DNA from: an uncultured Candidatus Saccharibacteria bacterium
GTDB taxonomy: Bacteria; Patescibacteriota; Saccharimonadia; UBA4664; CAZJNH01
Assembly: GCA_964547425.1 (NCBI GenBank)
Contig: CAZJNH010000005.1
Coordinates: 17,703 to 81,702, forward strand
Length of the DNA stretch: 64,000 bases
Direction: 5' to 3'
The position numbers and the translations under genes were made by a program. Numbering within the stretch: the stretch's first letter is position 1; each line of letters opens with the position of its first letter. The notes below the pieces were generated by a model. It ran no database searches. It saw only the letters and a program-made list of their open reading frames with translations, and was not told the origin of the DNA. Positions 1,567 to 61,318 of this stretch are shown in pieces.

Positions 1567-3744
1567 TTAGAAGAGTGGGGGCTGTTCGTTTTCGCTGAAC
1601 TGCAGCGTGCAGTCGGATTTTGTCGGATCGCAGTTTCCGGTGCCGGATGACAGAGTTAATCCCGGCGGTCCCGCGCCGACAAACACCAGGCCCATTTCTG
1701 GCCCGCCAATCTGTTCGGCGACAACCGGCCCCGCGGTTTTTGAGCCATCGCCTCTGCGCCAAAACAGCACGGCGTTAGCCGAAAGCAATCCGTGAACTTG
1801 GAGTTTTGCCTCACAAGGATTCCCGCCGCTTTTTGGTGATTTAGGGCAGGTCCAGATATTGCCTCTGAAGCAAGCCCTGAGAGCTCCGCGCCTGGCGCAT
1901 GGCCCAACGCCAGCGAAGTAGTAGCCGTCCAGATTGGTAACAGCTCCTGCGACCTTTAAGCTGGCGTAATCAACCAACGCGAACGAAGGCAGCTCGGAAG
2001 TGCTGCTAAAGCCGTTGCCGCCGTTGTCGTCGTATTTAATGTTACCGCCTATCCTAACGCTGTACCCAGCATTCTGAATCGGGTGGCAGCCGCCGCTGCA
2101 GCTGGTGCGGATTGGAATAGCCTGGATAACCAAGGTTTTGTGGCCGCGAATGATAATCGGGCCGCCGTTGGGGTTCCTAAGGTTAATCGGTTGGTTAAAA
2201 TCAACACTGCCATATAGCGACGGATTATTACAAATTTCTTGCCCGTCATAACTGATACAGTGCAGCGCCGGTGAAACATCCTCCAGTACATGGACGTAGC
2301 ACCATATCATCTGTTCCGGCTTACCTACACTTAACGGGTCCGTGCCGGCTAACATTCTGACGATTCTGGGTACATCTTTATTGCCGCAAGCGTCTTGGTC
2401 GTTGCCCTTACTACCGATGTAGATGACATTGCCTGAAGGCGAGTGAGATATATGTTTTCCCTTGCTGCGGCCCGCGAAATTGTTGGTGTAGTTAATCACG
2501 TTTTGCAATTCCAGCTGGCAAATCGGGAAGCCGTAGTTCATAGTCGGATCGCTCGATTGGCCAACTCGCAATCTGCTGGCCGGGTTCTGCGACCCTCCGG
2601 AACCAAAACCAAAAATTGGGCCTGTGGAGGAAATCACGGAGCTCACGCCGGACTGGTCAAAACTGCCGTGAACCGACTGCGGAACCAAGGAACCGAAGTT
2701 ACACTTCACCCTTTTGGATGTCCTTATCACTGCCCCGGAGTGGACATCACCATAAGTCGCTAAGTTATTGAAGATCGTTGTGAGGTACGGGATCCTTGGG
2801 CCGAGTGCCGGGGCGGAGGTGGAGCAAGCTTTGCTCACCATATTTAAAAGCCCGGTGGCATCCCACATCGTAAAGGTATAGGACTGTCCCGGCGACAGCC
2901 CGGTTACTGCTGGTGCCGTGCCCGGGCTGGTGGTAAACGGGTTGCCGGGTATAGGATTCCCATTTTCATCATCGATAGTAACGCTAGGTGTACCGCTAAA
3001 CGTGTAGCCCAAAGTAATCGACGTGTCGGTCGATGAATTGCAGGTAATTCTCCCGCTGGGTCCGGGAGTAGGCCTTGTCCGACAGCTGTCGGCGGCCAAG
3101 TTACTACCGCTACCGCTATCCCGCAAGGTGCCTTTATAGCTAGTCCCAGGCGAAAGACCCGTCTCGTCCCAATGCCCGCTGCCGTTGGGCGTGCTATAGC
3201 CCAAATCTTTGTAGTGGACGAGAACGCCGGCGCGGTAAAGTACCGGATCGTTAACGTTTTTCCAGGTTGCCCGCCACCTGATAGCTGTTTGACTCAGGGT
3301 AGTACATGTAACTGTGCCTGACCCACCGTTATTTCCCCCGCAACCGACAGGATTTAGATCGCCTTTAGTATCAATGGTACCGCCGCCATCAAAGGTTAGA
3401 GTGATTGTCGCTACGAGGGTCCCGTTTCGGCTGAAGGTCGTCCCTACTCCTTTACACAAAGCATTAGTGTTATCAGACCACTCTAGGCCTCCTCCAGTAG
3501 CCGGACCGGTAATAGCAATGTGATATTGGACATTGGCAATTGGTGTCGAGTAGGCAAAATAAGCATTAAAATTTTGACCGGTAACGCCCGTTAAAGAGAC
3601 CGTACACGATCCGCCGCTTGATAAGGCGACGCCTGAACTAGTGCAGACCGTGGCGGCTTGAGCAGGTGGTGGGTTAAACCCGTACAGCGCCAAAGAGGAA
3701 GCCAAGGTCAGTACCAACAGCCCAACTCGGCGGAAAAATCTCAT
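1567..3744 (-). CDS. Large secreted Cys-rich surface protein (function unknown)
   Basis: 725-aa ORF with a Sec signal peptide (MRFFRRVGLLVLTLASSLALYGF...AQA/AT) and many Cys, Gly and Thr residues. It overlaps the upstream membrane-protein gene by 4 nt. Confidence 0.65.
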   Translation of the reverse strand: MRFFRRVGLLVLTLASSLALYGFNPPPAQAATVCTSSGVALSSGGSCTVSLTGVTGQNFNAYFAYSTPIANVQYHIAITGPATGGGLEWSDNTNALCKGVGTTFSRNGTLVATITLTFDGGGTIDTKGDLNPVGCGGNNGGSGTVTCTTLSQTAIRWRATWKNVNDPVLYRAGVLVHYKDLGYSTPNGSGHWDETGLSPGTSYKGTLRDSGSGSNLAADSCRTRPTPGPSGRITCNSSTDTSITLGYTFSGTPSVTIDDENGNPIPGNPFTTSPGTAPAVTGLSPGQSYTFTMWDATGLLNMVSKACSTSAPALGPRIPYLTTIFNNLATYGDVHSGAVIRTSKRVKCNFGSLVPQSVHGSFDQSGVSSVISSTGPIFGFGSGGSQNPASRLRVGQSSDPTMNYGFPICQLELQNVINYTNNFAGRSKGKHISHSPSGNVIYIGSKGNDQDACGNKDVPRIVRMLAGTDPLSVGKPEQMIWCYVHVLEDVSPALHCISYDGQEICNNPSLYGSVDFNQPINLRNPNGGPIIIRGHKTLVIQAIPIRTSCSGGCHPIQNAGYSVRIGGNIKYDDNGGNGFSSTSELPSFALVDYASLKVAGAVTNLDGYYFAGVGPCARRGALRACFRGNIWTCPKSPKSGGNPCEAKLQVHGLLSANAVLFWRRGDGSKTAGPVVAEQIGGPEMGLVFVGAGPPGLTLSSGTGNCDPTKSDCTLQFSENEQPPLF

Positions 3745-21163: not shown

Positions 21164-21415
21164 TCAGTCCGTCATGAGGCGATCCTCAGTTAATGCGAAC
21201 AACCATAGCATCTTCGCATGACGCGGAGAGGTTACGAGAAGTCGCGCTTCCTCCGCCGAGATGCCAGCGAGACGGATCATCTCTAGCAAGCGGCGAGGTG
21301 TAGGAACGGAACTTCTGTGAGGCGTTGAGGCATCGAGCGCCGACTGAATACGATCTAGGTCATCGGCCGAGAGATCGTCGTCGAGGGCGCGCTCGAGCAG
21401 TTCAATAGCGGTCAC
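21164..21415 (-). CDS. Small acidic protein (83 aa), function unknown
   Basis: GTG start preceded by a GAAAGGAAAG RBS. It lies downstream of copy 1 of the 28-bp promoter-like motif. GC is higher than in flanking genes. Confidence 0.45.
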   Translation of the reverse strand: MTAIELLERALDDDLSADDLDRIQSALDASTPHRSSVPTPRRLLEMIRLAGISAEEARLLVTSPRHAKMLWLFALTEDRLMTD

Positions 21416-21558
21416 TGTCTTTCCTTTCGTTTCACGGAAATGAACAGGGTCGCTTTAATAGGAGGTGTGTCTGACAATGTGGTCAGTATTACACGCAAAA
21501 CTCCTCACTTGAGGGGACATTTGAAAGAGCGTAGAGCGTAATTAGTTTACACTATTTA

Positions 21559-21586
21559 TGCTTATCTGTCAATAGCTGTTATGGTT
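21559..21586 (-). promoter_or_regulatory. 28-bp repeated promoter-like motif, copy 1 (TGCTTATCTGTCAATAGCTGTTATGGTT)
   Basis: The minus strand reads TTGACA-17-TAAACT. The same sequence recurs at 22280..22307 with 1 mismatch. Confidence 0.5.
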
Positions 21587-21663
21587 ACCTTTCGTCCTTT
21601 TGGACTCATCAGAGTGAACACGCATTCACTGAGGTTGCCCGGTTTAACCCCCGGGCTGGGCTT

Positions 21664-51295: not shown

Positions 51296-51385
51296 TGGCG
51301 GAGAGGGAGGGATTCGAACCCTCGATGCCCTTGCGGACATACGCGCTTTCCAAGCGCGCGCACTAGGCCACTATGCGACCTCTCC
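51296..51385 (-). tRNA. tRNA-Ser (anticodon GGA), type II with long variable arm, CCA encoded
   Basis: Manual fold. Acceptor GGAGAGG/CCUCUCC; D-stem GCA/UGC; anticodon stem CGCGC/GCGCG with loop UUGGAAA; 6-bp variable-arm stem; T-arm GAGGG-UUCGAAU-CCCUC; discriminator G followed by CCA. Confidence 0.8.
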
Positions 51386-56386: not shown

Positions 56387-57418
56387 TTAAGAGAGGTCTT
56401 TTTTGAGGGTTTCGATGAGGTCGACGGAGGAGGGATCAACTTTATTGAGGATGCCGAGATAAACGCCTACGAAGTCGCCGAGTAGTTGGGTCCAGAGCAG
56501 TTGTTGGAGTTTGGTCTCCCCTTCCGCTTTAACTTCGATCGGGGAGGGCATTTTGCCTGAAAGCAGACGATTTGAAATCTCCCAGCGTTCGGCGATCTTG
56601 GGATGGTCGAGCGAAGACTGTAGTTCAATCACTTTGAATAGCTTGGTTTCCGGCTTTAGCCACCCCTGGAATTCGTTGTGGTTAAATTCGCTCATCAGAT
56701 AATAAAACGCCACGTTCTTGGCGTTCTCGTTGATCGAAATCTTCCATTTCTGGGCAGCCGCTGCCAGCACTGGGCCGCTGTAAATCACCACGCTTGACCC
56801 AAGTAGCTTGTCGGCGATTTGCTTGGCCAAGTTTTCGTGCGCCGGTACCGTTTGGACCCACGCCGCGCCCTTGCCCTCCAACCAGTCGGCGGCCTGCTCC
56901 AGTTCCGCGGCAGCGCCGGTGGTGGCTCCAATTTGGTCGAGTGTAAGCGCAATCGCCTTCGCCATAGACAAAGCCGCTAGACGCTGCGGGATTCCGGCCG
57001 GGATTTCAAGTAGCGGCAACTCGGCAGATTTGGCTTCGGCCATTAACTCCCCACCCGCGGACAAAGCGACGATCTGCGCGCCTCGCGCCTTGGCCTCAGC
57101 AAACATCGACAGCGTTTCTTCGGTGTTGCCGGAGTAACTGGAAACAAAAACCAGACTGTTTTGGCCGACGAAGGCCGGTAGATGGTAGTCACGCACCACC
57201 ACAAAAGGCAGCTTTAGCCGATCACCCAGCCAGTTGCGGATTAACTCCGCCGCCAACGCCGAACCTCCCATGCCAGCGAGAACAATATTCGCGTAGGGTC
57301 TAGGAATTAGAGGCGAGAGGCTAGGGAATTGCTGCTTTAGTTGCTTGGCTTGTCCGGCTACTAACCCAAGCGCGTTGCCGCGGTCGATACTGTAAACAAA
57401 CTGGCCGTCGTCTAACAT
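56387..57418 (-). CDS. SIS-domain bifunctional phosphoglucose/phosphomannose isomerase-like protein
   Basis: GMGGSALAAEL... plus a second SIS domain. Start trimmed to MLDDGQFVY; the upstream ORF extension is a terminator/hairpin region. Confidence 0.65.
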   Translation of the reverse strand: MLDDGQFVYSIDRGNALGLVAGQAKQLKQQFPSLSPLIPRPYANIVLAGMGGSALAAELIRNWLGDRLKLPFVVVRDYHLPAFVGQNSLVFVSSYSGNTEETLSMFAEAKARGAQIVALSAGGELMAEAKSAELPLLEIPAGIPQRLAALSMAKAIALTLDQIGATTGAAAELEQAADWLEGKGAAWVQTVPAHENLAKQIADKLLGSSVVIYSGPVLAAAAQKWKISINENAKNVAFYYLMSEFNHNEFQGWLKPETKLFKVIELQSSLDHPKIAERWEISNRLLSGKMPSPIEVKAEGETKLQQLLWTQLLGDFVGVYLGILNKVDPSSVDLIETLKKDLS

Positions 57419-57429
57419 AAGCCTTATTT

Positions 57430-57457
57430 TACAGCAACGAAAAAAGCGACTCAGTTG
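57430..57457 (-). terminator. Intrinsic terminator on minus strand (GCGACUCAUCAACUGAGUCGC + U6) directly upstream of the SIS gene start
   Basis: 8-bp stem plus T6, about 30 nt before the ATG. It is preceded by a perfect 13-bp hairpin at 57482..57514. Confidence 0.6.
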
Positions 57458-57523
57458 ATGAGTCGCTTCGCGTAAGGCGGGCTCGGGGAAATCTCCTTGC
57501 CAGAAGGAGATCTCCCCGAGCAC

Positions 57524-58150
57524 GGTGGCCTCAGCTCTTTCGAGCTAACCCCCTCGGGGGTATTGGTTTCCGGAACTTAGCGTCCGGAGGTCTGGGGAAT
57601 TGAGCTTGCGACAGTCAGGTTCCCAACCTGCCCGTCACTCCGCGATACCCTGCGTGGGCCTAATTGAAAAACGCAGAGTGCTCAGTTCGTTGAACTGGTA
57701 ACAGCCAGGGTCTTCAATCCTGCGTTCTCCAGAGAAGCAAATCGATCTCGAGTGAAACCCGCACCTGCAGAAACCGCGCTATGCGGTTCTCAAAGAGCAG
57801 TACAGCCGCTCGAGCCGGGAAGTTGTTAGGCGTCGCCGCTGTGCCGATCAGGCATTTTCGGGCCTAGGCTCCGAACGTATGACGGGTGTTCCGTACCTCA
57901 GCAGCCGAGCGTTACTTCGTTCGATTGCCTCTTCGGGCCATTCTTCTGGGCTCCTCTTGTGCAGGCCTCGGCCTGCTGGCAACCCGGGAAGAATGTTACT
58001 CGTTCACTTTACTACGGAGGTCCCCTTTCCATGCGTATCCCCCAGTAGTGGAATTTGATCTTTCAAGGGATAGCTCCACCTCATCGCGCTTGAGCTATCG
58101 TTGTGGAATAATCTACGCCCGCTTGTCAGGCGTGTCAAGCTTTTTTAACC
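57524..58150. ncRNA. Candidate structured non-coding RNA region (family unassigned; strand uncertain)
   Basis: About 750 bp with no credible ORF in a genome whose intergenic spaces are usually under 150 bp. It contains multiple long hairpins and is bounded by a minus-strand terminator (57430..57457) and a plus-strand terminator (58121..58146). Confidence 0.35.
58121..58146 (+). terminator. Intrinsic terminator on plus strand (GCTTG-tcaggcgtgt-CAAGC + T6)
   Basis: Hairpin followed by TTTTTT. A TTGACA -35-like hexamer lies just downstream at 58160..58165. Confidence 0.5.
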
Positions 58151-58270
58151 GTAACTAACTTGACAAATAAAAACGCTTATGCTACACCTTAAGTGACAGC
58201 ATCGCGCTGCCAGGTGGAAGTCCCAGGTCAATCAAGTTTGACTTGGGACGAACTGTAGGAGGAGGCGAAA

Positions 58271-58438
58271 ATGGTTTCGAAGGAATTCGAAAAGCTCTTC
58301 GCCAAAGCCCACCCCGAACTCCCCAATCTCGAACTCGCCCTTAAGGAGCACGAGCTGGAGCTGCAAGAGTTCAGGGAACGCCACGAGCGCCATCTCCGCA
58401 AGAAGCAAGAGGCGCCTCCGGCGAAGAAAGCTTCCTAG
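58271..58438 (+). CDS. Small charged coiled-coil protein (55 aa; MVSKEFEKLFAKAHPELPNLELALKEHELELQEFRERHERHLRKKQEAPPAKKAS)
   Basis: Strong AGGAGGAGG RBS 5 nt upstream of the ATG. A 12-bp hairpin (58219..58248) lies immediately upstream. A 10-bp-stem hairpin at 58459..58485 follows. It is below the ORF-track length cutoff. Confidence 0.4.
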   Translation: MVSKEFEKLFAKAHPELPNLELALKEHELELQEFRERHERHLRKKQEAPPAKKAS

Positions 58439-58491
58439 CAGTAACCCTTCCCCGTTTCGTGAGCCAGGTCTGCAGCCTGGCTCACAACCAT

Positions 58492-59226
58492 TTAGGCCGC
58501 TTGCTCGCCGTACTTTTGGCGAGCTTTTTCGACTAACTCCCACGCCGCGCTGGCGGTAGTTTTCAGTTCCCCGGAATTTGGGATACTCATCTCACGCATT
58601 TTGGCCAACAGCCTGCGGGCGTCCTCGAACGACAAAGTCTCGCCCATTTCCTGCCGCACCGCTTCGGTCACCTCATCGTGGGCTTTAACTCTAAGCAGAT
58701 CAATCTTGGCAACGTCAGCGCTTGTAATGTGCAGTTGGTTAGCTAAGTTTATCGCCGCCGTGCCCTTTTTAACGGTTCGTAAATACTCGTGCCATTTCTT
58801 GTTGGTGTCAGGGGAAAAGATCTGCTCCGGAAATTCGAATTGGCCATCAGCGTTTAACATTCCCATCTTGGCCAGTAGTATGTTTTCGGATTCAGAGCCA
58901 TCAATCGACTTCAGCATTTCTTGCATATTCTCCCGGTGCTGCTCCTCTAATTGAGCCTTCTCGTTTTCCGGAGATCTAAAAATCCCCAGCTCTTTTTCGA
59001 CATCTTCACGGGTATATTCACGCAGCTGCTTCATCTTTAACACCAAGTTTTTCTCCTCCGGTTTGCCCCGCGAAACCCTAATTTGGTCGAGCAGCTGCTC
59101 AGCTTCAGGATTAATCTGCATCACCGCGTCGACTTTCGCGTCAACGAGTTCGGCATTGAGATCGGTAACTAACTCTGGCCCGGATATAGCGTGAACAGCT
59201 TCCGGATTTGATCCACCCTCTTTCAT
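58492..59226 (-). CDS. Hypothetical protein (244 aa), helical/charged
   Basis: Long ORF upstream of groEL in the same orientation. Confidence 0.5.
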   Translation of the reverse strand: MKEGGSNPEAVHAISGPELVTDLNAELVDAKVDAVMQINPEAEQLLDQIRVSRGKPEEKNLVLKMKQLREYTREDVEKELGIFRSPENEKAQLEEQHRENMQEMLKSIDGSESENILLAKMGMLNADGQFEFPEQIFSPDTNKKWHEYLRTVKKGTAAINLANQLHITSADVAKIDLLRVKAHDEVTEAVRQEMGETLSFEDARRLLAKMREMSIPNSGELKTTASAAWELVEKARQKYGEQAA

Positions 59227-59271
59227 AAATTAAGCATAACAAAAAAGAGCCCCGCCGGCACAAGTGCCGGA

Positions 59272-59332
59272 AGTCCTAAGAACCAAACTCTAAGTCCTAA
59301 AGCGCTACTTAGAGTTTAGGGTTTAGAACTTG
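59272..59332. repeat. CTAAG-unit palindromic intergenic element (copy C)
   Basis: CCTAAGAACCAAACTCTAAGTCCTAAAGCG/CGCTACTTAGAGTTTAGGGTTTAGAACTTGG inverted repeat between groEL and the upstream gene. Confidence 0.55.
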
Positions 59333-59351
59333 GATCTTCCGCCGCAGGCGG

Positions 59352-61010
59352 CTAGTAGTCCATTCCGCCCATGCCACCGGGTGGCATTCCAGGCGTCGGT
59401 TTGTCTTCGGGAATGTCGACGATCAACCCGCCCATCGTCATCGCGGTCCCGGCAATAGAAACTGCATTCTGAATCGCTTCGCGAACAACCTTAGCCGGGT
59501 CAACTATCCCGCCGGATTTCATATCTACTATTTTGGCTGGTTCATTAACGTTAAAGCCTGAACCAGCTTTGGCCTCCTGGACCTTAGCCAATTTCTCCTC
59601 GGCATTGAGTCCGGCGTTGTTCATTAACTGCTTAAATGGCTCCAGCAGGGCGTTTTTGACGATTAACTTGCCGGCATCAGCGGAGCTTGAAACCTTAGAG
59701 GCGTCTGCGTTTAGCCCTGCCGACAGGTTCACCAGCGATACACCACCGCCAGGCACAATGCCTTCGGCCACGGCAGCCTTGGTCGCGTGAACGGCGTCAT
59801 CAACCCGGAATTTCTTTTCTTCAATCTCGGTTTCGGTAGCGCCGCCTACTTTTATAACCGCCACTTTGCCGGCCAACGCCGCCAGCCGCTCTTCCATCTT
59901 TTCCTGTTCGAACTCACTCGTAGCGTTGGCGATCTGCTTCTTGAGCATCGCGATCCGACCGCTGACCTCTTTGGCGTCGCCGCCGCCTTCGATGATGACC
60001 GTAGCGTCCTTGTCGGCAATAATCTTGCGGGCAGTTCCCAGCATGTTCAAATCAGCATCTTCAAATGTAATGCCCTTTTCTTCGGAAATAACGGTCGCGC
60101 CGGTCAAGATTCCAATGTCTTCCATAATCTCCTTGCGGCGGTCGCCGAAGCTCGGAGCCTTGATCGCCAGGGTATTAAATACACCTTTCAGCCGGTTCAA
60201 AATCAGTGTCGCCAGCGCCTCACCCTCAACATCCTCCGCGATGATCACCACTTCCTTTTTGCCAGCTTGGGCTAATTTCTCAAGTAGCGGCAGGATGTCT
60301 TGGATCGAGCTGATTTTCTTGTCGGTAATTAGGATCGCCGGCTTTTCGTAAACCGCTTCCATCCGCGCCGGGTCGGTCACCATGTAAGGGCTAACAAAAC
60401 CGCGGTCGACCTTAAAGCCTTCGACGATCTCCTTTTCCATTCCCAGAGTTTGCGACTGCTCAACGGTCACTGAGCCGTCGCCACCCACGGCGTCAATAAC
60501 ATCAGCGATCAGCGAACCAATCTCCTCGTCACCGGCCGAAACGGTCGCAACTTGGGCGATCTTCTGTTTGTTACCGGCAATCTTTTCAGTCATGCCACCG
60601 ATTTTTCCAACCACTTGTTCGGCCGCCTCATCCAGCCCTTTTTTGAGGTCCATCGGGTTGTGCCCGGCGGCGATTAGGCGGTGAGCCTCGTTCAGAATGT
60701 GATAGGTCAAAATGGTGGCGGTGGTCGTGCCGTCACCAACTGTGTCGTTTGTTTTCGAAGCCGCCTGCTTAATTAACTCGGCGCCCACGCCTTTGCCTAA
60801 ACTGTCTTTGTCCTTGGCATTAGCCTCAATTTCAACGCCCTTGGCCACCGTCACGCCGTCGTGGGTAACGGTCGGGGAGCCATAGCCTTTTTCAATTACA
60901 ACATTGCGGCCTTTTGGTCCCATCGTTACCTTAACGGCGTCGTATAACTCCTTGGCGCCAGCCAAAATCCGGGCTCGAGCATCATCTTCGTAAAAAACTT
61001 TCTTAGCCAT
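59352..61010 (-). CDS. groEL: Chaperonin GroEL
   Basis: 552 aa with canonical GroEL sequence and C-terminal GGM repeats. Confidence 0.95.
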   Translation of the reverse strand: MAKKVFYEDDARARILAGAKELYDAVKVTMGPKGRNVVIEKGYGSPTVTHDGVTVAKGVEIEANAKDKDSLGKGVGAELIKQAASKTNDTVGDGTTTATILTYHILNEAHRLIAAGHNPMDLKKGLDEAAEQVVGKIGGMTEKIAGNKQKIAQVATVSAGDEEIGSLIADVIDAVGGDGSVTVEQSQTLGMEKEIVEGFKVDRGFVSPYMVTDPARMEAVYEKPAILITDKKISSIQDILPLLEKLAQAGKKEVVIIAEDVEGEALATLILNRLKGVFNTLAIKAPSFGDRRKEIMEDIGILTGATVISEEKGITFEDADLNMLGTARKIIADKDATVIIEGGGDAKEVSGRIAMLKKQIANATSEFEQEKMEERLAALAGKVAVIKVGGATETEIEEKKFRVDDAVHATKAAVAEGIVPGGGVSLVNLSAGLNADASKVSSSADAGKLIVKNALLEPFKQLMNNAGLNAEEKLAKVQEAKAGSGFNVNEPAKIVDMKSGGIVDPAKVVREAIQNAVSIAGTAMTMGGLIVDIPEDKPTPGMPPGGMGGMDY

Positions 61011-61300
61011 TACTTCTCCACCACGGCCAATACGTCTTTGGCCTCAAGGATAATAAATTCCTCGCCTTCAACCTTAACTTTGTCGGGTCCGTACTGGGAG
61101 TGCATAATCTTGTCGCCAACTTTAACGTCGACGGGAATCCGGTTGCCGTTGTCGTCAACCTTGCCGGGACCAACCGCGATTACCTCCGCGATCTGGGGCT
61201 TTTCTTTGGCGGTGTCGGGAATAAAAATACCACTTTTGGTTTTGGCCTCGGCCTCGAGGGACTTAGCCACAATCCGATCCGCTAAGGGTTTTAACTTCAT
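61010..61300 (-). CDS. groES: Co-chaperonin GroES
   Basis: About 96 aa with canonical GroES motifs (mobile loop, roof hairpin). Confidence 0.9.
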   Translation of the reverse strand: MKLKPLADRIVAKSLEAEAKTKSGIFIPDTAKEKPQIAEVIAVGPGKVDDNGNRIPVDVKVGDKIMHSQYGPDKVKVEGEEFIILEAKDVLAVVEK

Positions 61301-61318
61301 CATCTCTCCTTCAGTAAA

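Follow-up and report, generated by a model that had tools for sequence, protein, structure and literature searches.

We analyzed a 64-kb stretch of DNA (hereafter the window, to which all positions refer) from a Saccharimonadales bacterium (Saccharibacteria/TM7, Candidate Phyla Radiation (CPR)), and we focus here on a gap of 852 bp at 57419..58270 that contains no credible open reading frame (ORF). The gap lies between the start of a gene for a SIS-type, bifunctional phosphoglucose-phosphomannose isomerase (hereafter SIS) and a small ORF of 55 amino acids (aa). On the minus strand the order is GroES-GroEL (61303..59352), a gene for a 244-aa orphan protein of no known function (59226..58492), the gap and the SIS gene, while on the plus strand the 55-aa ORF (58271..58438) separates the 244-aa gene from the gap. 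The SIS gene starts at the ATG at 57418, given that its homologues share the N-terminus MLDDGQFV, and this start sets the extent of the gap. Most other gaps in the window are shorter than ~220 bp, a looser limit than the 150 bp named as typical in an earlier note on this DNA. That note had read the stretch as a candidate locus for one or two non-coding RNAs (ncRNAs) of unassigned family. The absence of a credible ORF was upheld with the extent corrected as above, and the core idea of an ncRNA also stood, but the anatomy did not: the sequence comparisons described below argue that the gap probably holds one independently transcribed ncRNA gene of ~670 nt on the minus strand, belonging to an undescribed family in one Saccharimonadales subclade.

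The minus-strand transcription unit

The predicted unit consists of the following features.

57437..58104, minus strand: predicted ncRNA of ~668 nt that begins at the conserved ACAAC (inferred start) and extends through the terminator T-tract
58110..58138, minus strand: sigma-70-type promoter of the RNA, with −35 TTGACA (58138..58133), a 17-nt spacer and −10 TAGATT (58115..58110)
58086..58104, minus strand: conserved 5′-terminal segment of the RNA, ACAACGAUAGCUCAAGC, identical in six lineages at ACAAC, AGC, AA and C
57473..57566, minus strand: 3′ domain of two short hairpins (one with a GAAA loop) and a helix around the long hairpin, shared only with the relative L002
57481..57521, minus strand: long GC-rich hairpin of 18 contiguous pairs including one G.U, with full arms at 57478-57498 / 57504-57524
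57437..57469, minus strand: intrinsic terminator found by a terminator scan, with an 11-bp stem (57469..57443), a 5-nt loop and U6 (T6 at 57442..57437)

A promoter scan returned TTGACA-17-TAGATT as the sole promoter-like site in the region, and an A-tract lies directly upstream of it. The pattern is unique within the window, where none is expected by chance, and the scan recovered it in 5/5 relatives (L001, L002, L011, L012 and L013). The start site at ~58104 was placed by its spacing from the −10 hexamer, and the first ~20 transcribed bases (ACAACGAUAGC...) are kept in all five of these relatives. At the other end, the terminator stops 18 nt before the SIS ATG on the same strand. The unit is therefore furnished, as far as consensus matches plus conservation can tell, with a promoter and a terminator of its own on one strand.

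Two elements of this 3′ end had been noticed before in a different form. The minus-strand terminator, formerly placed at 57430..57457 and ~30 nt from the SIS gene, is real but sits at 57469..57437, and a perfect 13-bp hairpin reported at 57482..57514 also exists but is larger, extending to the full arms listed above. The G.U pair of this long hairpin is an A.C mismatch on the plus strand. When the equivalent place was examined in the relatives, a strict scan flagged a terminator in the window, L002 and L013, and a terminator-type hairpin with a U-rich tail was visible in L001, L011, L012, L015 and L017; in L001, L011 and L012 a longer loop or a weaker U-tract leaves the rules of the scan unsatisfied, and L015 was passed over although its sequence looks canonical. 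An analogous long hairpin lies ahead of the terminator in all seven of these relatives. All members share this kind of 3′ ending, namely a long GC-rich hairpin whose 5′ arm is rich in GGGGA, a short linker, the terminator-type hairpin and the U-rich tail.

Conservation in relatives and the divergent micro-protein gene

Related loci were collected with the SIS protein as an anchor from reference genomes, from metagenomes (2 loci) and from contigs with SIS homologues found by a protein search; the relatives in the reference genomes are all metagenome-assembled genomes of the Saccharimonadales. Besides the window, the full members of the family are L001, L002, L011, L012 and L013, and one partial member was present in the collections searched. 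The SIS proteins of these five relatives are 60-71% identical to that of the window and to each other, and at above 61% identity the protein search yielded no additional SIS relatives. Two Logan contigs from the organism of the window itself were 100% identical and thus provided no population variation. The locus is present in sequencing runs SRR9179562 and SRR9179560.

All five relatives have an ORF-free stretch upstream of SIS and a conserved block of ~100 bp, which contains two promoters placed back to back and is followed on the plus strand by the small ORF.

58086..58188, both strands: back-to-back promoter block of ~100 bp, common to the RNA and the divergent small ORF, found by blastn and nhmmer
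58160..58188, plus strand: promoter of the divergent small ORF, with −35 TTGACA (58160..58165), a 17-nt spacer ending in TGc and −10 TACACC (58183..58188)
58220..58249, plus strand: 12-bp hairpin in the 5′ untranslated region (UTR) of the small ORF, with arms at 58220-58231 / 58238-58249
58271..58438, plus strand: gene for a charged 55-aa micro-protein, divergent from the RNA and called as a gene in public assemblies

In pairwise blastn comparisons the block is 72-84% identical between lineages over 52-160 nt, and an nhmmer profile made from it gave exactly one match per locus in the six loci. By contrast, four-fold degenerate sites of the SIS genes are only 32-47% identical between the same lineages. 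Since these sites are saturated and the block is nevertheless conserved, the block is under strong purifying selection. On its RNA side, the six-lineage alignment shows CTTGACA, GCGTAGATT and, after 5 nt, ACAAC..AGC..AA.C, all of them invariant, so that both hexamers of the RNA promoter and the GCG preceding the −10 are identical in every lineage. The ORF-free body that follows varies from 456 to 760 nt among members, and the distance from ACAAC to the SIS start from ~480 to ~790 nt.

On the side of the small ORF, TTGACA and GCTTATG (the extended −10, TGnTAAACC) are invariant in the six lineages; the hexamers of this promoter were assigned by reading the sequence. The 12-bp hairpin ahead of the 55-aa ORF, which had been pointed out before, was confirmed, and similar 5′ UTR hairpins occur in L012 (GUCCCAGG...CUUGGGAC) and L002 (GGCCCAAG...CUUGGGUC). 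Positional homologues of 55-72 aa are found in all six loci; they are charged, probably helical, and end in K[K/R]AS, or in KKT in L013. The micro-protein had no match in Pfam, PHROG or PADLOC. The L002 ATG that has a strong Shine-Dalgarno sequence is out of frame with the conserved C-terminal part, suggesting a frameshift or an assembly error. We also looked for base pairing of the conserved RNA 5′ end: its complement has no site within the window, and its pairing with the micro-protein 5′ UTR is not beyond that of shuffled sequences. Separately, a heptamer, GUGGAAG or GGUGGAG/GGUGGGC, lies 25-45 nt downstream of both divergent starts in several members (~58075..58081 on the minus strand and 58215..58221 on the plus strand of the window, with the same relative positions in L002, L011, L012 and L013). 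On the DNA these heptamers form an inverted pair that flanks the promoter block, and they may bind a protein, as RNA or as DNA, or reflect shared ancestry.

The interval between GroEL and SIS is a variable slot once SIS identity falls below ~60%. In the window (57419..59351) it holds the predicted RNA, the micro-protein gene and the 244-aa orphan gene; in L018 it measures only 74 nt; in L007/L008 (177 and 197 aa) and in L009, L014, L016 and L019 it is occupied by unrelated small protein genes, the overall range in the slot being 113-298 aa. L015 carries an analogous ORF-free unit of 440 nt, in which a perfect promoter (TTGACA-17-TGnTATAAT) is combined with a long hairpin and a terminator, and its SIS start is of the leaderless type, but no sequence similarity was detectable between this unit and the window RNA; the slot of L005 resembles that of L015. 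The RNA module is a lineage-specific insertion into this slot.

Folding of the RNA and alternative explanations

Compared with shuffled sequences, the region 57430..58150 has a folding z-score of −7.3 for the minus strand and one of −3.3 for the plus; length-matched coding controls gave −1.0 (SIS) and +0.15 (GroEL). Whole transcripts reached −5.3 to −7.7 on the RNA strand in 6/6 loci, with the opposite strand always weaker. Folding energy beyond composition-matched shuffles was thus found for whole transcripts, with the signal concentrated in a few long hairpins. The interior (57570..58103) is barely beyond shuffles, at −1.76 on the minus and −0.46 on the plus strand, so the earlier description of the stretch as hairpin-dense applies mainly to the 3′ 135 nt.

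Between the window and L002 the last ~230 nt can be aligned, and the final ~100 nt are 87% identical. RNAalifold on the 241-column alignment predicted 45 pairs, of which 8 are changed on both sides and 4 on one side while still pairing, and 0 are broken, a count that comes from two sequences only and from a structure predicted from the same two. When the structure was shifted by 1-3 columns as a control, only 0-2 double changes were counted versus 8. We regard this as good pairwise evidence that the minus-strand helices of the 3′ domain are maintained. Of the covariation that the earlier note had looked to for support, this pair supplies the compensatory changes, but not a family-wide signal. 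A closing helix joining the 5′ and 3′ ends (UGAGGUGG with CCGCCUUA), predicted in the window and L002, was discarded because its position differs in the other members.

Several points weigh against an independent ncRNA gene. The sample of members is small, and the promoter, the start site and the terminator are putative, being consensus matches backed by conservation. Alignment of the bodies across lineages fails beyond the 5′ ~20-35 nt, except between the window and L002; k-mer sharing among members is no better than chance and thus gives no shared internal motif; and a covariance model made for the 3′ domain from the window and L002 sequences matches only those two among the members, so that a common family fold is unproven. 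The near-random folding of the interior and the two-sequence origin of the compensatory count belong here too, and in sliding windows the fold signal came from few long, lineage-specific hairpins. RNAalifold supported no consensus hairpin for the conserved 5′ end, and the conservation there is therefore one of primary sequence; a hairpin drawn by hand (ACAACG..AGC-GNRA-GCU..CGUUGU) agrees well with L011 and L012 and in part with L001, L002 and L013, but does not fit the window. It is conceivable that the conserved block acts at the DNA level, as a regulatory region of the micro-protein gene, and any partner or function that we propose for the RNA is a guess.

The main rival explanation is one that we consider doubtful. 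According to it, the stretch is mostly non-functional spacer whose body drifts; the block regulates the micro-protein gene only, through activator or upstream-promoter (UP) sites; the RNA promoter is incidental or tolerated; and the hairpins and the terminator only shield the SIS promoter from read-through. An unalignable body of such variable length, its weak interior folding, the lack of any motif or 3′ domain common to the family and the location in a slot that elsewhere shrinks to 74 nt or holds unrelated genes would all fit a spacer. On the other hand, the −35, the −10 and the first ~20 bases on the RNA side are invariant 60-110 bp upstream of the micro-protein start site while neutral sites are saturated, and a terminator-type hairpin is oriented to serve the RNA promoter in every member. 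The folding advantage of the RNA strand likewise recurs in every member, the 3′ domains of the window and L002 remain similar with compensatory changes, and half a kilobase has been kept in six lineages with very compact genomes.

The position of the terminator just ahead of SIS suggests another explanation, a long regulated leader of the SIS gene in which the terminator is read through in response to a signal (riboswitch, T-box, protein-mediated or processive antitermination). The features at the start of the SIS gene are these.

56387..57418, minus strand: SIS / bifunctional phosphoglucose-phosphomannose isomerase gene, 343 aa, Pfam PF10432 and PF01380, with homologues
57426..57431, minus strand: TAAAAT, resembling a −10 box and located 7 nt ahead of the SIS ATG; candidate promoter for a leaderless SIS mRNA

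The ORF list and the public gene calls give SIS 378 aa from a GTG at 57523, reading through the terminator and the long hairpin, and the start at 57418 corrects this over-extended N-terminus. In 8/8 loci (the window, L001, L002, L011, L012, L013, L015 and L017) the SIS ATG is preceded at 6-7 nt by a TAnAAT box, and five of the eight (L011, L012, L013, L015 and L017) lack a Shine-Dalgarno sequence between the two. The more distant relatives L003-L006 and L009 have a short leader after the −10 box, and this leader contains a Shine-Dalgarno sequence. SIS thus probably has a promoter of its own in the short space from the RNA terminator to the ATG, and its mRNA is probably leaderless, which hints at leaderless translation for a housekeeping gene of this clade; in a full-text search of the literature on leaderless mRNAs in CPR bacteria we found nothing relevant. 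Without a Shine-Dalgarno sequence, a read-through transcript would have no ribosome-binding site, and as judged from the sequence SIS would not depend on read-through.

The short distance on the same strand, the recurrence of this arrangement in all relatives and a conserved 5′ element that could be a loading site for an antiterminator are in keeping with a leader. Against it, SIS has its own −10 and is found without such an upstream RNA in L014, L016, L018 and L019. The 18-bp stem beside the terminator is too stable for switching, there is no conserved aptamer-like core, and no cis-regulatory family of Rfam matches. The long attenuated SIS leader that the earlier note had offered as an alternative is therefore improbable.

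The slot holds real protein genes in more distant relatives, which makes it conceivable that the stretch is a decayed protein gene, or else a set of very small unannotated ORFs, as some members have ORFs of 20-50 aa after a Shine-Dalgarno-like GGUGG near the 5′ end. We consider this very unlikely. The longest ORF within the gap measures 90 aa, Pfam gave no match for the internal ORFs, and all three stop codons interrupt all six frames in all six loci, for which reason recoding was rejected as well. Among the members, tblastx found no conserved peptide; only the promoter block matched, in all frames, as expected for conservation at the DNA level. L011 and L012 differ by 2-nt indels inside the conserved 5′ part, which break the frame. 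Taken together, the stops in every frame, the tblastx pattern and these indels indicate that the transcript is not coding. A disrupted gene, which the earlier note had envisaged in the homologous regions of relatives, was also not seen when the proteins that occupy the slot in other lineages were compared with the window gap by tblastn, and independent decay in six lineages with an invariant promoter is unlikely.

Even less probable is a functional RNA on the plus strand that ends at 58121..58146, or two convergent or overlapping RNAs. At this place the plus strand does carry a hairpin with a T6 tract behind it, and this strand folds beyond shuffles. However, the terminator scan skips this site, its stem has an internal mismatch and the hairpin is lost in L011 and L013, whereas the TTGACA that overlaps it on the minus strand is invariant. 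What looked like a plus-strand terminator is the −35/UP part of the RNA promoter on the minus strand, composed of the hexamer and the upstream A-tract, and the picture of a region bounded by outward-facing terminators gives way to that of a single minus-strand unit. No plus-strand promoter-like site was found upstream; in addition, the opposite strand folds worse in 6/6 loci, and it is on the plus strand that the A.C mismatch of the long hairpin falls.

A divergent member of a known family is the least probable of all, since it has in its favor only resemblances seen by eye, one of which (GGAAAGGGGACCUCCG) is identical in the window and L002, and two such motifs lie on opposite strands. With all 4227 families of Rfam 15, cmscan found at gathering scores only a tRNA elsewhere in the window and nothing in the gap; at E<10 the gap gave only chance microRNA or small-RNA matches on single hairpins (E 0.18-5.9, far below gathering). 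Nothing was found at gathering scores in 12 related loci, and nothing recurrent in the RNA regions of seven related loci at E<5. This argues against a divergent form of RNase P RNA (RF00010 / RF00011, no match at gathering or at E<10 in the window, nor in the relatives), of transfer-messenger RNA (tmRNA, RF00023, for which ARAGORN and cmscan found nothing in the gap, ARAGORN reporting only a tRNA-Ser in the window) and of signal recognition particle (SRP) RNA, 6S RNA, the glmS ribozyme, OLE, GOLLD, ROOL, HEARO and group I/II introns, none of whose Rfam 15 models matched. The partial likeness to RNase P RNA, tmRNA and SRP RNA mentioned earlier is thus unsupported, and the family stays unassigned, as had been stated.

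Two explanations of the gap at the level of the genome were rejected. GC skew is negative over the whole window and tracks gene orientation with no switch, which speaks against a replication origin or terminus; a repeat or mobile element (REP/BIME, MITE, phage or plasmid) is made unlikely by the lack of a second copy within the 64-kb window and of similarity to phage and plasmid collections. The tRNA nearest to the locus in the window is tRNA-Ser at 51296..51385, ~5 kb away. L015 has a tRNA gene (2334..2420) directly downstream of and convergent to SIS, and L011 and L013 have partial tRNA-like matches at contig ends. Elsewhere in the window, at 21590..21632 on the minus strand, we observed a hammerhead type III-like core, UC|AGUGAAugcgugUUCACU-CUGAUGA-GUCCaaaaGGAC-GAAA, which scored 31.5 bits with RF00008 (E 4.9e-5 in a 361-nt search), below the gathering score of 48.5, and whose stem III would have only ~3 bp. 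It lies in a 650-nt gap together with an 83-aa ORF (21164..21415, minus strand) and a promoter-like site (21572..21544).

Proposed role and comparison with known systems

If the gap does hold an independent ncRNA gene, the near-consensus sigma-70 promoter would start transcription at ~58104, and a non-coding transcript of ~670 nt would end in the 18-bp hairpin and the intrinsic terminator at 57469..57437, with the downstream SIS gene not being part of the RNA unit. The family would keep the promoter, the first ~20 bases, the layout of ORF-free body, hairpin and terminator, and the divergent gene for a micro-protein of 55-72 aa that shares the control region. By conjecture, the RNA may be stable, abundantly made and trans-acting; its conserved 5′ end may be the specific element that a partner recognizes, with a protein the most plausible choice and the neighboring micro-protein a possible one; and the fast-evolving, hairpin-rich body and the capped 3′ end may mainly give stability or scaffolding. 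A bolder proposal, which we put forward only tentatively and hold to be rather unlikely, is that of a new class of large, fast-evolving CPR ncRNAs that work as ribonucleoproteins with the 55-72-aa micro-protein through the invariant 5′ end of ~20 nt, under a highly conserved promoter.

The genomes of Saccharibacteria and other CPR bacteria measure ~1 Mb, and non-coding DNA is scarce in them. An RNA gene of 0.5-0.75 kb whose promoter and 5′ end are invariant across saturated lineages suggests a function worth ~0.07% of the genome. Our full-text literature searches, and term searches within papers on Patescibacteria, gave no description of lineage-specific ncRNAs in Saccharibacteria or CPR bacteria. 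Should the ribonucleoprotein proposal be true, a lineage-specific RNA-protein module would have been kept despite extreme genome streamlining; should the body be a drifting spacer, the finding would shrink to an ordinary conserved divergent promoter. An RNA gene would also be an experimentally tractable target in a group where genetics recently became possible.

Among known systems, terminator-based leaders (riboswitches, T-boxes and attenuators) resemble the locus in having a structured RNA and an intrinsic terminator directly upstream of a metabolic gene on the same strand. They differ from it in that here the downstream gene has its own −10, lacks a Shine-Dalgarno sequence in most members and occurs without the leader in some relatives, and in that an aptamer-like core is missing. 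The CsrB/RsmZ sponges share with the predicted RNA a variable length, several hairpins, poor primary conservation and a strong promoter with an intrinsic terminator, but the predicted hairpin loops do not carry the repeated GGA or any other shared motif.

6S and Ms1-type RNAs are ~180-300 nt long, bind RNA polymerase and fold into a rod with a central bubble. The predicted RNA is like them in that sequence conservation across genera is poor and homologues are recognized by synteny and promoter, and it would likewise be expected to be stable and abundant with capped ends; at 450-760 nt, with multi-branched predicted folds and no match to the Rfam 6S models, it is unlike them. The orphan large ncRNAs OLE, GOLLD, ROOL and raiA have highly conserved nucleotides and well-supported covariation, whereas the RNA described here matches no Rfam model, conserves only its first ~20 nt ahead of an unalignable body and is confined to one small clade. 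Like these RNAs, it appears as a stand-alone gene several hundred nucleotides long that has a promoter and an intrinsic terminator of its own, is predicted to fold into a multi-branched structure and has no known function, and like them it was found by the analysis of intergenic gaps.

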